The notes under the pieces are model-generated. The model was given only the letters and a program-made list of their open reading frames with translations. It was not told the DNA's origin and searched no databases. Below are positions 36,245 through 52,340 of a stretch of DNA of 64,000 bases, in pieces. A program made the translations under genes and the position numbers. This stretch comes from Candidatus Chisholmbacteria bacterium RIFCSPHIGHO2_01_FULL_52_32 (GTDB taxonomy: Bacteria; Patescibacteriota; Microgenomatia; UBA1400; Chisholmbacteraceae): assembly GCA_001816585.1 (NCBI GenBank), contig MHCJ01000003.1, positions 220,228 to 284,227 on the forward strand. Direction: 5' to 3'. Within the stretch, counting starts at the first letter, position 1, and every line of letters begins with the position of its first letter.

Positions 36245-36290
36245 TCGATAAGTTTTCCCATCTTGAGGCTACGGATAATGTAAAGGAATC

Positions 36291-36358
36291 CCTGCCTCGA
36301 ACCACCGACCTGTCCGATGGATCGGACCGCTCTAACCAACTGAGCTACGGACCCCCCC
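36291..36358 (-). pseudogene. truncated tRNA-like element
   Basis: Reverse complement begins GGGTCCGTAGCTCAGTTGGTTAGAGCG (good acceptor 5' strand plus D-arm). It continues as a perfect hairpin GTCCGAT-CC-ATCGGAC where the anticodon arm should be, then AGGTCGGTGGTTCGAGG (variable plus T-stem/loop identical to the neighbouring tRNA-Val). No T-stem 3' strand or acceptor 3' strand follows. Confidence 0.4.
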
Positions 36359-41423: not shown

Positions 41424-42158
41424 CTAGGAGCTTGAAGGCAGTCTCAATCGTCGGGCTGTTTTGGGGAACTTATTTCTGAAGGCTTCGATGACAAGTGAAG
41501 CTGCGTTCTCAATCGTCATAGAGGTGGTGTTAATCACGATGTCGTAATAATTGGGGCTAGAAACATCTTTTCCGAAGTACTGACGGATGAATTCTTTCCT
41601 CTTCTTGTCGGTTTCACGGATGACATTGATTGCTTTTTCTCTGTTGATGTGTTCGAACTTGACTGCCCGTTCGACGCGTACGAGGTAGGGCGCGCATATC
41701 CGAACGTGAAGACCCTTGCTAAACGGTGTAATAAAATTTGCACCTCTGCCGAGGATAACAACTTCTCCTCGAATTGCGGCAGAGAGAACGATAGAAGAAA
41801 GCGAATGAATATATCGGATGTCTGAAACATAGTCCGGGTTGAAGGTTGAATGAATGATATCGTCTATCGCGGTTCGGCTGTGTTCGTCAATTGACTCAAG
41901 GAGTGCGCGCCTTTGGTGCACATTCTTTGCCACATCCTCGATGATCTTGCGGTCATAAAGGGTGAAGCCGAGACGTTTGGCAACGAGGGATGCGACTGGT
42001 TTGCCTCCGCTCCCCGGCTCCCTGGAGATGGTGATGAAGGGCTTCTTGAATCGCCCGGATGGTGACTCCGTTTCTTCTTGCAGCTCGCTGCGTTTCAGGC
42101 GTACAAAGGGTGCAGAGCTGAGGACTTTATTGATCAGGCGGCCATAAAAATGGTGCAT
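41424..42158 (-). CDS. cytidylate-kinase-like family protein (P-loop NTPase)
   Basis: 244 aa. P-loop ISREPGSGGKPVASLVAKRLGF and Cytidylate_kin2-like organisation. Confidence 0.7.
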   Translation of the reverse strand: MHHFYGRLINKVLSSAPFVRLKRSELQEETESPSGRFKKPFITISREPGSGGKPVASLVAKRLGFTLYDRKIIEDVAKNVHQRRALLESIDEHSRTAIDDIIHSTFNPDYVSDIRYIHSLSSIVLSAAIRGEVVILGRGANFITPFSKGLHVRICAPYLVRVERAVKFEHINREKAINVIRETDKKRKEFIRQYFGKDVSSPNYYDIVINTTSMTIENAASLVIEAFRNKFPKTARRLRLPSSS

Positions 42159-42205
42159 TTGGAAAGACGATACACAGTTTAGCGGTTCTGGTCAATGCTC
42201 CGTCG

Positions 42206-42235
42206 TTACACCAGATACCTATCTTTTGTTATAAT
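42206..42235 (+). promoter_or_regulatory. candidate promoter for tRNA-Gly(GCC): TATAAT -10 at 42230-42235
   Basis: TTACAC-18 nt-TATAAT, ending 9 nt before the tRNA 5' end. Confidence 0.35.
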
Positions 42236-42244
42236 GCGGGAGAT

Positions 42245-42316
42245 GCGGGTGTGGTGTACCGGTAACACGACTCCTTGCCAAGGAGTAAACAGAGGGTTCG
42301 ATTCCCTTCACCCGCT
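42245..42316 (+). tRNA. tRNA-Gly (anticodon GCC)
   Basis: GCGGGTG/CACCCGC acceptor, GTGT/ACAC D-stem, ACTCC/GGAGT anticodon stem with loop TTGCCAA, GAGGG/CCCTT T-stem, TTCGATT loop. Confidence 0.85.
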
Positions 42317-42477
42317 CTGGTTCGACAGGCTCACCATTCGCGTGAGGCTGTCGAAGCAAATTGATGAAGGGATGAGAAGTTTACCTCTTCGAGCCTGAGC
42401 GATTCGACTGAGCTCATCGTAGATAACCTCAGAGCCGAAAGCCTGAGTGAAATCGAAGGGATTCCCTTCACCCGCTC
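42317..42477 (+). repeat. 160-nt tRNA-associated mini-element ending in an 18-nt direct repeat of the tRNA-Gly 3' end
   Basis: gattcccttcacccgctc at 42300-42317 (T-loop to 3' end of the tRNA) recurs at 42460-42477. The segment between starts with a perfect 14-bp hairpin ttcgacaggctcac/gtgaggctgtcgaa and shares gggatgagaagtt ... cctgagtgaaatcgaaggg with the element after tRNA-Gln. Confidence 0.5.
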
Positions 42478-43540
42478 ACTTGTTGTTCCTTCGAAGTCCG
42501 TAGCGCGTTTCGGCTGCGCTTATGAGAGTTTTTATCAGCTCATCATAATCCATCCCCGCTACACGGGCGGCGAACGGAAAATAGGAACTTTTTGAGACCT
42601 CTGGGGGAGTTAGCCCCGGCGGAGAGTTGATTTCGAGGAAAAACGGATTTTCCTCTTCATCGCAGCGGATATCGATTCGGGAGAGATCTTTGATGTCCAA
42701 TGCCTCCCAGATTTGTCTACCCATGTTCTCCAATTTTCCGCGGAGTCTGGTATCGATTTTGGCGGGACAGAGGAGATGGTCGCTATCTTTTTCTTCTTCC
42801 ACGTACCATTTCACTTCGAGGGAATCGAGCGGTTGGTAGCCTTTGGGTAAGTGTGCGTGGTTTGATTCGATAATCGGGAGAAATTTTGGCGGATTGCCAA
42901 GCATTGCAATAGAGAATTCCCTGCCTGTCAGGAATGGCTCAACGAGGGCGGGTTCGTGAAATGTTTTTAGAATCAGAGTTACCTGCTTTTTCAACTCGGC
43001 ATCGCTTCGGACGACGCTGTCGTTTGTTATCCCGGCTGAAGAACCTTGACCAACCGGTTTGACGATGAGCGGATAAGAGAGACGGCTTTCCCGCTTGTCG
43101 TCTGGGGAGCTGAACAGTTGGTACGGGAGCGTCGGTATTCCGTACGCCTTGCAAAGCTGTTTGGCTTTTGCCTTGTTCATCACCAGCGCTTGGGTTAACG
43201 GAGAGGCGCCGGTATAGGGAATACCTAGCATTTCACACATCGCCGGGATGTGGGCGTAACGATCTTTACCGTGTATCCCGAGGGAATAGTTCAATGCCAG
43301 GTAAATTTCATATCTGTGGCTGTAAAGCGACAGGTAGGCTTTCTCGTCGGCTTCTATTTGCAGGACGTTGTAGCCCACGTGTTTGAGGTGGCTCACCATC
43401 TCCTCGATAGCTTGTGGGTCATCGTAGTCCGCTTCTGTGTACGTTGAGGGGTCTTTAGGGTCCGGATAGCGGTGCCTGACGTTATACAAGAATGCGATGA
43501 GGCGTTTGTTCACGGGTTTGCGGGTAGTTGCCATGTCCAT
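42476..43540 (-). CDS. D-alanine--D-alanine ligase family ATP-grasp enzyme (paralog 1)
   Basis: IHGKDRYAHIPAMCEMLGIPYTGASPLTQALVMNKAKAK matches the Ddl N-terminal/central region. ATP-grasp C-terminal part (EPFLTGREFSIAMLG...IRCDEEENPFFLEINSPPGLT). Start uncertain; the track ORF runs to 43588 and overlaps paralog 2. Confidence 0.7.
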   Translation of the reverse strand: MDMATTRKPVNKRLIAFLYNVRHRYPDPKDPSTYTEADYDDPQAIEEMVSHLKHVGYNVLQIEADEKAYLSLYSHRYEIYLALNYSLGIHGKDRYAHIPAMCEMLGIPYTGASPLTQALVMNKAKAKQLCKAYGIPTLPYQLFSSPDDKRESRLSYPLIVKPVGQGSSAGITNDSVVRSDAELKKQVTLILKTFHEPALVEPFLTGREFSIAMLGNPPKFLPIIESNHAHLPKGYQPLDSLEVKWYVEEEKDSDHLLCPAKIDTRLRGKLENMGRQIWEALDIKDLSRIDIRCDEEENPFFLEINSPPGLTPPEVSKSSYFPFAARVAGMDYDELIKTLISAAETRYGLRRNNK

Positions 43541-44621
43541 TACCGTCCGGTGTCGGTAGTACCTTTGTTCCGACTCCCGTTGCGTCACGCATGGTATTTA
43601 ACAGCAGTCTTTTGAGAATTTCCACAAAAGAAATTCCGTACAGATTCAGGATGTTTGCAAGCGCGCAATCCACTTCTTTCGGGCCGAAGGCCGGATTGGA
43701 GTTTGCGTCGATGAAAAAGTAGCGTCCGGAGCTGTCCATGCGAACGTCAAACTTTCCGTAATCGGCCATTTTCGTAATCTCAAATGCCCGTTTGACGTAC
43801 GCTTTCAACAGCTCATCATGATACCGTTGATAGTGGAACGATTCATCTCCGTGCAGTAACCATTGGTCCTCAAAGGTTGAGAAGACGTACTGTTGGTTTT
43901 CTTTATGGAAGACTTTTTCAGCCAGGTATACTTTCTTGTTTAAGCCTTCAAGGAGCATACCGGTAATTTCACGGCCGACAATAAACTCTTCGACTAAGAC
44001 CGGCTGGTCGTATGTTTGGGTTAAGAATTTGATGCGATCGCGGAGGTGTTTCTCGTTTTCCGAGATTGCGTCCACGGTTATTTCAACGCCGCCGTGGATT
44101 TCGTTTAACTTGGAGATAAGGGGAAAGCGAAGCGTTGGATCGAGTGGGTCATTGGGCGTGTTGAATAGCTGGTTGTTCGGTACGGGAACGCCGTACTGTT
44201 GGAGGAGTTTTTTGACCAAAAACTTGTTGTAGTCAAGTGACTCTCCCAAGATTCCGGCTCCGGTATAGGATATTCCCAACAATTCGAGCACAGCGGGAAT
44301 GGTTGATGCCAAGTATTCGTTTCCTTTGACGGAACCGACCAAATTCATGACGATATCAGGCTTATCGCGGCGAAGCTTTTGCGGGAGCAGAGCATCTCCG
44401 GGGTAAAGCTCGGTTCGGATGCCCATCTTTTCCAAGTAGCTTACGATGATTTTCGCATCATGGAGTGCGTCTTTTTCCGTGAGGTACTGCGCTTCTGTGG
44501 GAAAGTATTCTCGCTTGACTTCGCTATAGGTGACTGCGACTTTCTTTGGAAGCTCAAGGGGAGTTTTGCCGTTTTGGGTCGTTGGCTGGCTGGGCGGTTT
44601 GTCTTCGGTGTCTGCGTTCAT
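43482..44621 (-). CDS. D-alanine--D-alanine ligase family ATP-grasp enzyme (paralog 2)
   Basis: VMNLVGSVKGNEYLASTIPAVLELLGISYTGAGILGESLDYNKFLVKKLL and an ATP-grasp C-terminus. Tandem to paralog 1. Confidence 0.7.
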   Translation of the reverse strand: MNADTEDKPPSQPTTQNGKTPLELPKKVAVTYSEVKREYFPTEAQYLTEKDALHDAKIIVSYLEKMGIRTELYPGDALLPQKLRRDKPDIVMNLVGSVKGNEYLASTIPAVLELLGISYTGAGILGESLDYNKFLVKKLLQQYGVPVPNNQLFNTPNDPLDPTLRFPLISKLNEIHGGVEITVDAISENEKHLRDRIKFLTQTYDQPVLVEEFIVGREITGMLLEGLNKKVYLAEKVFHKENQQYVFSTFEDQWLLHGDESFHYQRYHDELLKAYVKRAFEITKMADYGKFDVRMDSSGRYFFIDANSNPAFGPKEVDCALANILNLYGISFVEILKRLLLNTMRDATGVGTKVLPTPDGNGHGNYPQTREQTPHRILV

Positions 44622-44753
44622 TGTTCAATTCTCTTTTTCGTGTACTATCCATAATTTATTCATTTTTCACAATTGTCAAGTAGGAATATTGGAAGAATCC
44701 TGATAAAATATACTCGTTTCAAAGTATTTGCGTAGTGGTGGAGCTGGAGTCAT

Positions 44754-44824
44754 TGGGAGGTCGTCTAACGGTAGGACATCAGGTTTTGGACCTGAGTATC
44801 GGGGTTCGAATCCCTGCCTCCCAG
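44754..44824 (+). tRNA. tRNA-Gln (anticodon TTG)
   Basis: TGGGAGG/CCTCCCA acceptor, GTCT/GGAC D-stem, TCAGG/CCTGA anticodon stem with loop TTTTGGA, CGGGG/CCCTG T-stem. Confidence 0.85.
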
Positions 44825-44927
44825 CACTTCGACAAGCTCAGTGCTTTAGCACCGGGGTTGTAGAAGCATTGGCAGGGATGAGAAGTTGACCCTGAGTGAA
44901 ATCGAAGGGAATCCCTGCCTCCCAGCA
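44825..44927 (+). repeat. ~100-nt tRNA-associated mini-element ending in a 19-nt direct repeat of the tRNA-Gln 3' end
   Basis: gaatccctgcctcccagca at 44808-44826 recurs at 44909-44927. The element shares ttcgacaRgc, aagca, gggatgagaagtt and cctgagtgaaatcgaaggg with the tRNA-Gly(GCC) element. tRNA-Leu(TAA) begins 7 nt later. Confidence 0.5.
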
Positions 44928-44933
44928 TCACTT

Positions 44934-45017
44934 GCCGCGGTGCTGGAATTGGCAGACAGGCCAGACTTAAAATCTGGTGACCGCAAGGTCGTGTGGGTTC
45001 GACTCCCTCCCGCGGCA
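44934..45017 (+). tRNA. tRNA-Leu (anticodon TAA)
   Basis: GCCGCGG/CCGCGGC acceptor, CCAGA/TCTGG anticodon stem with loop CTTAAAA, long variable arm TGACCGCAAGGTCGT. Confidence 0.8.
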
Positions 45018-45120
45018 CAAATGACTTAAAACTTAAAACTGAAGACTTAAGACGCAAAACGAAAGAGGAGCATGACATTTAGTATTTGGTCTTTCCTGTT
45101 AAGTTGACTATAAGGCAATC

Positions 45121-48980: not shown

Positions 48981-48994
48981 CAGAGCGTTGCATT

Positions 48995-49040
48995 GCGGGC
49001 AGGCAAGGTGGAGATGCGGGTTCGATTCCCGCTATCCGCT
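48995..49040 (+). other. internally deleted tRNA-Gly copy (acceptor 5' strand + anticodon-loop-to-3'-end half)
   Basis: GCGGGCA-G-GCAAGGTGG-AGAT-GCGGG-TTCGATT-CCCGC-TATCCGC-T. CAAGGTGG equals the 3' half of the tRNA-Gly(TCC) anticodon loop and stem. Lies 15 nt after the intact tRNA. Confidence 0.45.
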
Positions 49041-49067
49041 CATCTTGCCAAAAGGAGGATGAGCGAG

Positions 49068-49234: not shown

Positions 49235-49339
49235 CAAGATAAAGTGAAAAGTTAAACCCATTCGACAAGCCCTTCGGCCGCGAGCTCAGGACCGAGTGGC
49301 TCAGAGCAAGAATGAAAAGTTAAAAGTTATCATACGTTT

Positions 49340-52242: not shown

Positions 52243-52340
52243 AAAACCAGAGCGCTTCCTTCGACAAGCTCAGGATAAATAGGCTCTGGGAATTAATCCT
52301 ACTTTTACGAGGCAGGCCGTGTCAATACGACGATTTTCCT

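Follow-up and report, generated by a model that had tools for sequence, protein, structure and literature searches.

The T-loop class of att cores comprises integrase integration sites in tRNA and tmRNA genes. No landing sites in bacterial genomes are more conserved than tRNA genes. The RtT repeats of Escherichia coli (RF00391), located behind the tRNA-Tyr genes of the tyrT/tyrV locus, have been unexplained since 1978. One repeat unit of the tyrT operon has been reported to yield a processed RNA, rtT, with a possible role in the stringent response. Phage T4 carries in its tRNA cluster the gene for SegB, a GIY-YIG homing endonuclease that recognises GGTTCRANTCC and cuts the 3' end of a tRNA gene (PMC2330249). 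Here, we describe two small elements, one behind tRNA-Gly(GCC) and one behind tRNA-Gln(TTG), in a 64,000-nt stretch (the window) of contig MHCJ01000003.1 from Candidatus Chisholmbacteria bacterium RIFCSPHIGHO2_01_FULL_52_32, a representative of the Candidate Phyla Radiation (CPR). Both very probably belong to a family of cassettes that is widespread at the 3' ends of tRNA genes, and share its architecture. The whole reading towards which we lean with modest confidence is that they are members without an open reading frame (ORF) and that the family moves by nuclease-driven homing. This would join three subjects that have been treated separately: the E. coli RtT/tyrT repeats, a hairpin repeat of about 25 nt found across phyla, and the small GIY-YIG genes between CPR tRNA genes. 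The family looks like a very small and very widespread occupant of tRNA genes.

Two related elements in the window

The element behind tRNA-Gly(GCC) is composed of the following parts:

42245-42317, forward strand: tRNA-Gly(GCC), called by ARAGORN and by the Rfam tRNA model (42245-42316, 63.1 bits); C74 is encoded, CCA is not
42300-42317, forward strand: first copy of the direct repeat (DR1), GATTCCCTTCACCCGCTC, corresponding to tRNA positions G57/A58 to C74
42318-42358, forward strand: left-end hairpin starting with tggTTCGACAGGCTCAC, an inverted core-like unit with 88% complementary arms (fold prediction)
42365-42373, forward strand: X' arm, TGAAGGGAT, complementary to tRNA positions 59/60-67 of the repeat
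42374-42385, forward strand: 5' part of the conserved core, GAGAAGTTTACC (alignment; partial match of covariance model R1 at 42362-42421)
42386-42441, forward strand: insert of about 55 nt that splits the core (gap against the Gln copy; split R1 matches)
42442-42459, forward strand: 3' part of the conserved core, CCTGAGTGAAATCGAAGG, whose final G is common to core and DR2
42460-42477, forward strand: second copy of the direct repeat (DR2); the DNA downstream is the original tRNA flank

Its counterpart behind tRNA-Gln(TTG) is shorter and has an undivided core:

44754-44825, forward strand: tRNA-Gln(TTG), called by ARAGORN and Rfam
44808-44826, forward strand: DR1, a 19-nt repeat of the tRNA-Gln 3' end
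44827-44866, forward strand: left-end hairpin starting with CTTCGACAAGCTCAG (fold prediction)
44871-44879, forward strand: X' arm, GGCAGGGAT, a perfect complement of tRNA-Gln positions 59-67
44880-44909, forward strand: intact 30-nt core, GAGAAGTTGACCCTGAGTGAAATCGAAGGG (R1: 68.9 bits, E 6e-18, over 44868-44929)
44909-44927, forward strand: DR2, 7 nt upstream of tRNA-Leu(TAA)

The two copies of the Gly repeat GATTCCCTTCACCCGCTC are identical at 18 of 18 positions. They start 160 nt apart, enclose 142 nt and end at C74, one base beyond the discriminator. The original prediction, made from the sequence alone, was right about this repeat of the tRNA 3' end and about its recurrence downstream; the 143 nt it gave for the enclosed segment have to be corrected to the length stated here. 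It had also described the left end as a perfect 14-bp hairpin. This does not hold, as 13 of 14 positions pair and one is a G-G mismatch; alternatively, 17-nt arms with 88% complementarity can be drawn. The homologous element that it had placed behind tRNA-Gln was found, with the 19-nt repeat enclosing an 82-nt segment, and the two motifs it had named as common to both elements, GGGATGAGAAGTT and CCTGAGTGAAATCGAAGGG, indeed occur twice each in the window and are confined to these elements.

Both elements have the same order of parts: X', the constant core GAGAAGTT(T/G)ACC CCTGAGTGAAATCGAAGGG, and then the tRNA sequence from A58 onward. Model R1 recognises the Gln copy as a whole and the Gly copy only as two halves. 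The Gln copy is the canonical member. The Gly copy is probably either expanded, as RtT is, or decaying and degenerate, with the insert of about 55 nt lodged in its core. This insert appears to contain a degenerate second unit, made up of CCTGAGCGATTCGAC and a TTCGAC...CGAAAG hairpin, and resembles the interior of E. coli rtT: the stretch CTCTTCGAGCC...GATTCGACTGAGC of the Gly element is similar to CTTCGACC...GGTTCGACTCGAGC in the RtT interior. The split Gly core, the X' arm matched to the target, the RNA-type covariation of the core and the kinship with RtT are features beyond those seen in the original prediction.

That the similarity arose by chance, or that copy 2 is part of a second tRNA gene or a pseudogene, has a practically negligible probability. 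tRNA T-arms resemble each other, and short matches between them arise. Against this stand the complete identity within 160 nt, the chance expectation of 0.03 matches for a 19-mer, two occurrences of which were seen in none of 100 shuffles, and the evidence from the family presented below. Neither ARAGORN nor Rfam, including a relaxed scan, called a tRNA at the second Gly copy, and the element is present at only 2 of the 15 tRNA genes in the window. Hence, the two objections that the original prediction had raised against itself, a second tRNA gene at copy 2 and shared motifs that are merely a ubiquitous tRNA trailer, do not apply.

Architecture, spread and predicted fold of the family

A unit comprises a variable spacer, the X' arm, the 30-nt core with the consensus GAGAAG-NNUNN-CCUGAG-YNNNR-UCGAAGGG, and an exact copy of tRNA positions A58 to C74. 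Throughout the family, X' is complementary to tRNA positions 59-65; since its sequence is that of the repeat start in reverse complement, it differs from tRNA to tRNA. In every non-tandem unit, the left boundary of the repeat lies at G57|A58. DR1 and DR2 agree by 95-100% at positions 58-74, by 66% at position 75 and by 52% at position 76. The repeat is most often 17 nt long (23 units), followed by 18 nt (14 units) and 19 nt (6 units), and longer repeats are either tandem units or include the tRNA terminator (L134, L199, L150). Because 191 of the 194 tRNA genes without an element in the studied loci encode C74, the copied block amounts to positions 58-73 plus a universal C. A count over all tRNA genes of loci L001-L240 and the window gave an encoded C74 in 275 of 278 (about 99%) and a complete CCA in only about 10%. 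In 10 loci, a CA that completes CCA follows DR2 and is missing behind DR1; the reverse was never seen. This asymmetry means that the DNA behind DR2 is the original tRNA flank and that the unit starts after C74. Mature CCA-tRNA was rejected as the source of the copy, as DR1 is not followed by CA and C74 is so regularly encoded in element-free genes.

The spacer between DR1 and X' measures about 7 to about 90 nt and has no conserved sequence outside CPR. CPR copies begin with a TTCGAC... hairpin, and only they have the short termini CTTCGA/TCGAAG. Unit sizes range from 47 to 142 nt; the smallest, in L132, L200 and L238, consist of about 47 nt plus the 17-nt copy. Tandem arrays were found in about 10 loci, among them L239 with three 103-nt units.

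How widespread the family is became apparent from two scans. The exact core 18-mer CTGAGTGAAATCGAAGGG, searched in one genome per species, yielded at least 120 loci (L001-L120), compared to about 17 expected by chance. The matches listed span CPR groups, Anaerolineae, Planctomycetota, Proteobacteria, Acidobacteriota, Bacteroidota and others. The majority of them represent a conserved unit of about 25 nt, RRGYUURYC-CUGAGUGAAAUCGAAGGG, at the tips of hairpins with copy-specific stems. The full architecture of the window elements behind a tRNA is present in five of the matches listed, all five with GAGAAG: tRNA-Gly of Blackburnbacteria (L007), tRNA-Ser of Levybacteria (L098), tRNA-Trp of Flavobacteriaceae (L120) and the two window copies. 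The second scan, a search of metagenomes with the GAGAAG-type pattern GAGAAGNNTNNCCTGAGNNNNNTCGAAGGGA, gave at least 120 loci with 137 units among the matches listed. There, a tRNA gene on the same strand ends less than 300 nt upstream of 95 of the 137 units, and 82 are associated with an exact repeat of at least 10 nt of the following sequence. The orientation of the unit is always that of the tRNA. Carriers are at least 22 tRNA (anticodon) species in CPR bacteria and Flavobacteriaceae. When all fetched loci were searched for tRNAs with a repeat of at least 15 nt from A58 within 600 nt, 74 of 323 were retrieved: 68 with the core, 4 with a mutated core, and 2 that are the E. coli tRNA-Tyr genes with RtT.

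The bare unit of about 25 nt, GCCUGYC/AGUUUAYC-CUGAG-YNNNR-UCGAAGGG, is found in many phyla (L001-L120) and in viral contigs of IMG/VR (L244-L363). In the viral contigs, 87 of 126 units have a C-G closing pair. The unit is usually located at the tip of hairpins with copy-specific stems. In places, it is interleaved with CCCTTCGAC...CTCAGGACAGGC, and L044, L079 and L119 contain 24-nt tandem arrays.

Rfam searches of the window and ten related loci, both at the gathering threshold and at E<=10, returned only tRNA and weak, insignificant C/D-box and miRNA matches. A text search of the literature for the motif sequences found no paper, and keyword searches on tRNA-trailer repeats revealed nothing relevant. 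The family appears to be unannotated and absent from Rfam, and to be a much broader relative of the RtT kind.

As one of two readings, the original prediction had considered decayed attL/attR scars left by tyrosine-integrase islands or prophages in these tRNA genes. We regard this as scarcely probable. It was correctly noted that a repeat from the T-loop to the tRNA 3' end has the classic position of an integrase core site, and such events do occur in this genome, as seen from the partial tRNA-Gly 3' half at 49004-49042 behind tRNA-Gly(TCC) and from a strain-level breakpoint inside the T-arm of tRNA-Leu. Independent decay, however, cannot leave the same 30-nt core at A58 in more than 100 loci and at 22 or more tRNA species. 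Units of 47-142 nt (82-142 nt for the bounded segments in the window), tandem arrays and RNA-type covariation of the core also argue against scars. ORF clustering near 240 matches disclosed no integrase specifically linked to the element. The only recurrent tyrosine recombinase is an xerD-like syntenic neighbour 0.6-3.5 kb upstream of a Flavobacterial tRNA-Thr cluster; this gene and the neighbouring hpf, tuf and ribosomal-protein genes were dismissed as element-specific genes, as all reflect plain Flavobacterial synteny. The GAGAAG-type core had 0 matches in 2.9 million viral contigs of IMG/VR, i.e. no attP was found. The other reading offered was a family of tiny, non-autonomous elements that occupy tRNA 3' ends. 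Both the existence of such a family and its architecture are supported, with patchy presence at orthologous tRNAs.

The structure of the right end was analysed in an ungapped alignment (A2) of 126 distinct units with shuffles as control. According to the model obtained, it is a pseudo-T-arm whose loop has been replaced. The predicted fold starts with helix P1, formed by X' and positions 59-65, and continues with a one-sided internal loop, GAGAAG-NNUNN, opposite A58 alone. A CCU/AGG helix, tandem G-A pairs, a G:C pair, a bulged U and a Y:R pair closing a variable triloop follow. In this fold, 83% of the alignment cells are paired compared to 72% in shuffles, and any shift of the register yields at most 56%. 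Double changes amount to 319 cells versus 129 in shuffles, with none of 500 shuffles as high, and this covariation is carried by P1. Among the 126 units, pair Y30:R34 is CG in 97, UA in 21, UG in 7 and another combination in 1, and pair 23:42 is CG in 66 and UG in 60. The inner pairs contain G-U 67 times and A-C never. Tolerance of G-U without A-C places the structure in the RNA with the sense of the tRNA and not on the opposite strand. The CCU/AGG helix is fixed by the search pattern; diverged copies that were found independently show compensatory changes from C:G to A:U and from U:A to C:G as well as G-U. When tRNA and element are folded together, DR2 pairs with the 5' acceptor strand and DR1 with X' in the predicted minimum-free-energy structure, which means that the unit can compete with normal tRNA folding.

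This fold also bears on the idea that the core is a new small ribozyme or processing signal at GGG|A58 that releases a tRNA 3' fragment, or that the element moves via an RNA intermediate, with the copy derived from the 3' part of a tRNA transcript. The G|A58 junction is invariant, and the layout is like that of small self-cleaving RNAs, in which a variable helix lies 3' of the junction and an asymmetric loop is conserved. In L134, L199 and L150, the duplicated block extends from A58 to the end of the intrinsic terminator, i.e. to the RNA 3' end. Nevertheless, we attribute little probability to this idea. No Rfam covariance model of a known ribozyme (hammerhead, hairpin, twister, pistol, hatchet, hepatitis delta virus) matches, and by inspection the consensus cores of the hammerhead (CUGANGA...GAAA), of loops A and B of the hairpin ribozyme and of the k-turn do not fit. 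Moreover, ORF clustering near the 240 matches linked no reverse transcriptase to the element, and the missing CA behind DR1 argues against mature CCA-tRNA as a source.

For the comparison with RtT, the tyrT/tyrV locus of E. coli K-12 was examined directly (L364, 1286200-1288000). The 178-bp repeats of tyrT end with AATCCTTCCCCCACCACCA, which corresponds to A58-A76 of tRNA-Tyr, and the boundary is again G57|A58. The RtT arm GGGGAAGGAT is the complement of positions 59-68, and GAGAAG follows directly; the chance of finding GAGAAG as the six bases after an arm defined by complementarity is about 1/4096. The pieces TTCGAC, CGAAGGG and CTGAG are present in the RtT repeats, too. In the Rfam consensus structure of RtT, the closing helix is formed by the GGGGAAGGAT arm and the tRNA-end copy. 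The same locus contains a fourth, more diverged RtT unit (66% identical) between tyrT and tyrV, and the annotated 29-aa tpr ORF is located inside one RtT unit.

GIY-YIG cassettes, persistence of the units and the proposed homing

Among annotated phages and plasmids, a BLAST search detected no more than partial matches to the core, one of them inside the 3' end of a small GIY-YIG gene. Clustering of neighbouring genes had used a cut-off of at least 100-120 aa, which left out GIY-YIG genes of about 90 aa, and short ORFs were re-scanned afterwards. The fetched loci contain 36 GIY-YIG ORFs (PF01541, 80-96 aa). Nearly all lie between the tRNA genes of CPR arrays, starting 4-85 nt after one tRNA and ending at the next. 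This family of about 90 aa is very large, with 75-87% identity across many CPR lineages. Several of the ORFs are enclosed by ends of the element type, as four loci illustrate:

L121: tRNA-Gln (AATCCTTGTCCCGCAGCC), GIY-YIG ORF, core GAGAAatttacgCTGAGTGAAATCGAAGGG, then the tRNA-Gln end copy AATCCTAGCCCCGCAGCC (16 of 18 positions match)
L236: GIY-YIG ORF, then a 35-nt spacer, X', core and DR2, all the same as those of the ORF-less tandem units after tRNA-Arg in L149
L159: TTCGACAAGCTCACC / tggTTCGACAAGCTCACC hairpin, GIY-YIG gene, GAGAAG-core
L380: tRNA-Gln, cTTCGAC..., GIY-YIG gene, core CTGAGCGTAGTCGAAGGG, 3' end of the tRNA-Gln type

The left end of the Gly element in the window matches the left ends of the GIY-YIG cassettes in L159, L202, L380 and L367; it starts with tggTTCGACAGGCTCACC, to be compared with the hairpin start tggTTCGACAAGCTCACC in L159. 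Since the same left end, a TTCGAC hairpin, and the same right end flank GIY-YIG genes in CPR, the short copies look like ORF-less derivatives of a cassette directed to tRNAs. The end copy in L380 differs from the 3' end of the upstream tRNA, which indicates that the copy can travel with the cassette. Larger elements with the same ends, suggested as a search in the original prediction, were thus found, with a small GIY-YIG nuclease gene in place of the expected integrase.

In the CPR arrays of L159 (about 4.8-8.7 kb), L190, L235, L367, L230 and L098, GIY-YIG genes of 80-116 aa are located between nearly every pair of tRNAs, often with an overlap of a few bases into the next tRNA. In L367, L375 and L121, a core-like unit with GAAGG 6-9 nt before the ATG may double as ribosome-binding site. 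Two further units enclose other small ORFs between two X'-core-DR copies, namely a 125-aa ORF in L237 (3790-4460) and a 211-aa ORF in L217 (800-2230); neither has a Pfam match.

Constraint was assessed in eight syntenic Flavobacterial loci, whose neighbouring xerD-like proteins are 58-76% identical. DR2, on which the search imposed no selection, is 96% conserved there; spacer and downstream sequence reach about 60%, roughly background. In L171, DR2 bears the same substitution as its own tRNA. Perfect 17-nt repeats about 100 nt apart should be prone to deletion, and their retention argues for selection or constant renewal. Orthologous tRNAs are patchily occupied. The window has a unit at tRNA-Gln and none at tRNA-Leu(TAA), and L159 shows the reverse. 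Within the Thr-Tyr-Gly-Thr-tuf-Trp cluster, it depends on the genome whether the unit is found at Thr(TGT), Trp or Gly(TCC), or at more than one of them.

In the homing step that we propose, a GIY-YIG nuclease directed to the T-arm, by analogy with T4 SegB, would break tRNA genes between the T-loop and the 3' end, and the cassette would be copied in at the break. The tRNA body would provide the left homology arm and the A58-C74 copy the right one, which could explain the lasting identity of this copy to the tRNA. By recombination between repeats, units might multiply or vanish locally. The unit would be co-transcribed with its tRNA, like RtT in E. coli, and would compete with the tRNA 3' end for the 5' acceptor strand; its RNA hairpin might have a role of its own. 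The homing step itself, which draws on analogy, is tentative.

A more far-reaching version appears unlikely to us. It holds that X', the GAGAAG-core and the copy of tRNA A58-C74 together are the cis device of a minimal mobile element, of a class not recognised before, that homes with the GIY-YIG protein of about 90 aa into the universally conserved part of tRNA genes between T-loop and 3' end, that RtT is a domesticated or fossil member, and, in one variant, that a ribozyme acts at GGG|A58. If true, the element would carry a homology or guide segment derived from its target and could re-target any tRNA by copying the 3' end.

Alternatively, the unit could be a purely host-serving, immobile structured RNA of the RtT type in the tRNA 3' trailer, processed by tRNA-maturation nucleases and imitating the tRNA 3' end or competing with it. 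It could tune tRNA folding or maturation, be a decoy for toxins or enzymes by which tRNA 3' ends are read, or signal in the stringent response as proposed for rtT. The identity of the repeats would then follow from the need to pair with the same 5' acceptor strand. Several observations fit: the sense-strand, wobble-tolerant covariation of the core, the constant orientation, the long retention of DR2 and core at syntenic sites despite flanking repeats that favour deletion, the substitution in DR2 that tracks a change in the acceptor stem, the predicted bistable fold, and the processed rtT RNA with its reported tie to the stringent response. Yet, presence at orthologous tRNAs is patchy and 22 or more tRNA species each have a locally matched copy, for which units would have to be created de novo again and again. 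Nuclease genes and other ORFs are flanked by the same ends, and core-like units occur in hairpins unrelated to tRNAs and in viral contigs across phyla, as for a selfish repeat. In addition, so few of the tRNAs in the window carry a unit. We therefore consider an exclusively host-serving RNA doubtful.

The reading as ORF-less, homing members of a cassette family has to be weighed against a number of findings that do not favour it. No GIY-YIG ORF of at least 60 aa is present in the 64-kb window or in the Flavobacterial loci; consequently, any nuclease would need to work in trans; otherwise, the link would be only historical. The core was found at the 3' end of only about 4-5 of about 24 distinct GIY-YIG ORFs, and as genes of this kind abound between CPR tRNAs in any case, co-residence could account for part of the association. 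SegB is larger and has a DNA-binding domain that the 80-96-aa proteins lack. The model does not account for how X' and both repeats come to match a newly colonised tRNA, nor for the upkeep of the element in Flavobacteria with no GIY-YIG gene nearby. X' is 72% similar to the Watson-Crick complement of positions 61-65 and 74% to the 5' strand of the tRNA T-stem; judged by sequence similarity, it is no closer to the former than to the latter. P1 shows no strand bias (G-U 62, A-C 49), and the apparent conservation of the core is inflated, since the search patterns fixed 21 of its 30 positions. The RtT covariance model, with a gathering threshold of 45 bits, found no match in the window elements and five related loci even at E<=10, while it scored 133-138 bits on E. 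coli as positive control; conversely, R1 does not score E. coli RtT. As neither model detects the other family, homology with RtT rests on architecture and short signatures, and the window elements are called RtT-like, not RtT. Finally, the search for empty sites in sister strains, proposed in the original prediction, brought no filled/empty pair among near-identical strains: contig L365 from another sample, 99.7% identical, has both elements unchanged. The best Ddl relative is only 67% identical, and synteny was lost or contigs ended at the tRNA.

Contig L365 deviates from the window in another respect. The 99.7% identity extends from 41573 to 45019 and is followed by full divergence inside tRNA-Leu(TAA) (44934-45018). 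The breakpoint lies at about 45005-45019 in the T-arm/acceptor part, ACTCCC|TCCCGCGGCACA versus ACTCCC|ACCTCGGGCACA, and nothing in the window matches the next 1.5 kb of L365, with RNase Y and a 135-aa gene. Either the two strains differ by a rearrangement or an island boundary located at a tRNA T-arm, or the assembly is chimeric.

Other features of the window are the following:

42476-43588, reverse strand: convergent Ddl-like gene (Dala_Dala_lig_C, Pfam), whose stop codon at 42476-42478 overlaps DR2 by 2 nt
52256-52279, reverse strand: stand-alone core-like unit UUUAUCCUGAGC..GUCGAAGGAA (R1: 18.1 bits), located in a hairpin between two genes, with no link to a tRNA
49261-49291, reverse strand: core-like unit with enlarged centre, CCTGAG-CTCGCGGC-CGAAGGG, antisense behind tRNA-Arg(TCT), with no tRNA-end copy attached

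The stop codon of the Ddl-like gene had been predicted to sit inside the right-hand repeat; this is true for two of its bases (42476-42477), and 42478 lies outside. The gene is one of two tandem Ddl-like (Dala_Dala_lig_C) genes at 42476-44621 on the reverse strand that overlap by about 100 nt, and the pair recurs in the relative L241. At 36290-36357 on the reverse strand, adjoining tRNA-Val(GAC), an uncalled truncated tRNA with a CAT anticodon loop extends from position 1 to the T-loop (...GGTGGTTCGAG). It is fused to GCAGGGATTCC, the inverted 3' side of the tRNA-Gln T-arm, which is the sequence of the Gln X' arm, and it looks like the relic of a recombination event at the T-loop. The partial 3' half behind tRNA-Gly(TCC) (region 48982-49042) comprises 39 nt of a different tRNA-Gly at 49004-49042. 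It is 74% identical, runs from the 3' strand of the anticodon stem through the acceptor and does not contain the core motif. It is an ordinary att-type or tandem-tRNA remnant, unlike the element studied here.

Comparison with known systems

Should the RNA be functional, it would be a new mimic or regulator of tRNA 3' ends. If the units are mobile, they would be among the smallest target-copying elements known, and minimal GIY-YIG nucleases would obtain a testable role. In practical terms, the units break metagenome assemblies at tRNA genes and yield spurious short ORFs, for which an annotation model would be useful.

Guide RNAs encoded at transposon ends, such as the omega-RNA of TnpB in IS200/605 and the bridge RNA of IS110, are comparable by analogy only: here, too, a structured RNA module at the end of an element is located beside a target-matching sequence. 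In contrast to them, there is no TnpB, IscB or IS110 recombinase, the module has 30 nt, and the intact adjoining tRNA itself would be the target.

MITEs (miniature inverted-repeat transposable elements) and very small dispersed repeats, e.g. the 21-27-nt SDR elements of Nostoc, are tiny, non-coding and present in many copies. The same applies to the family described here, which also occurs in hairpin contexts and is sometimes nested or in tandem. Short inverted termini (CTTCGA...TCGAAG) in the CPR copies and a target-side duplication of fixed length are reminiscent of MITEs. By contrast, the left end is not conserved outside CPR, and a duplication of 17 nt is far above those usually made by transposases. 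An internal arm matched to the target, strand-specific RNA covariation and extreme conservation of the core across phyla are likewise unlike MITEs, and the parent would be a cassette instead of an insertion sequence with a transposase gene.

With integrase att sites, the elements have in common a direct repeat that starts in the T-loop and extends to the tRNA 3' end, and a copy proximal to the element that completes the tRNA. They differ by the missing integrase, the segment of 47-142 nt, the use of one core at many tRNAs with locally matched repeats, and the additional X' arm.

Similarly to SegB, GIY-YIG genes are located between tRNA genes in CPR loci, some of them with the ends of the element. 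The landmarks of SegB, the T-loop motif and the tRNA 3' end, are the two that delimit the repeat here. Target duplication, a conserved RNA hairpin and ORF-less derivatives have not been described for SegB, and the window elements do not contain such a gene.

The architecture is shared with RtT. Like RtT, the units follow a tRNA gene directly at its 3' side, are on the same strand as this gene, end with a copy of the tRNA 3' end from A58, have an upstream arm that pairs with this copy and is immediately followed by (U)GAGAA, and form tandem arrays. RtT units are 130-178 nt long, are known only at enterobacterial tRNA-Tyr and have a copy that includes the encoded CCA. The family represented in the window, by comparison, has units down to about 47 nt plus 17 nt and a compact 30-nt core for which RtT has no counterpart in this form, and it extends over at least 22 tRNA species in CPR and Bacteroidota.

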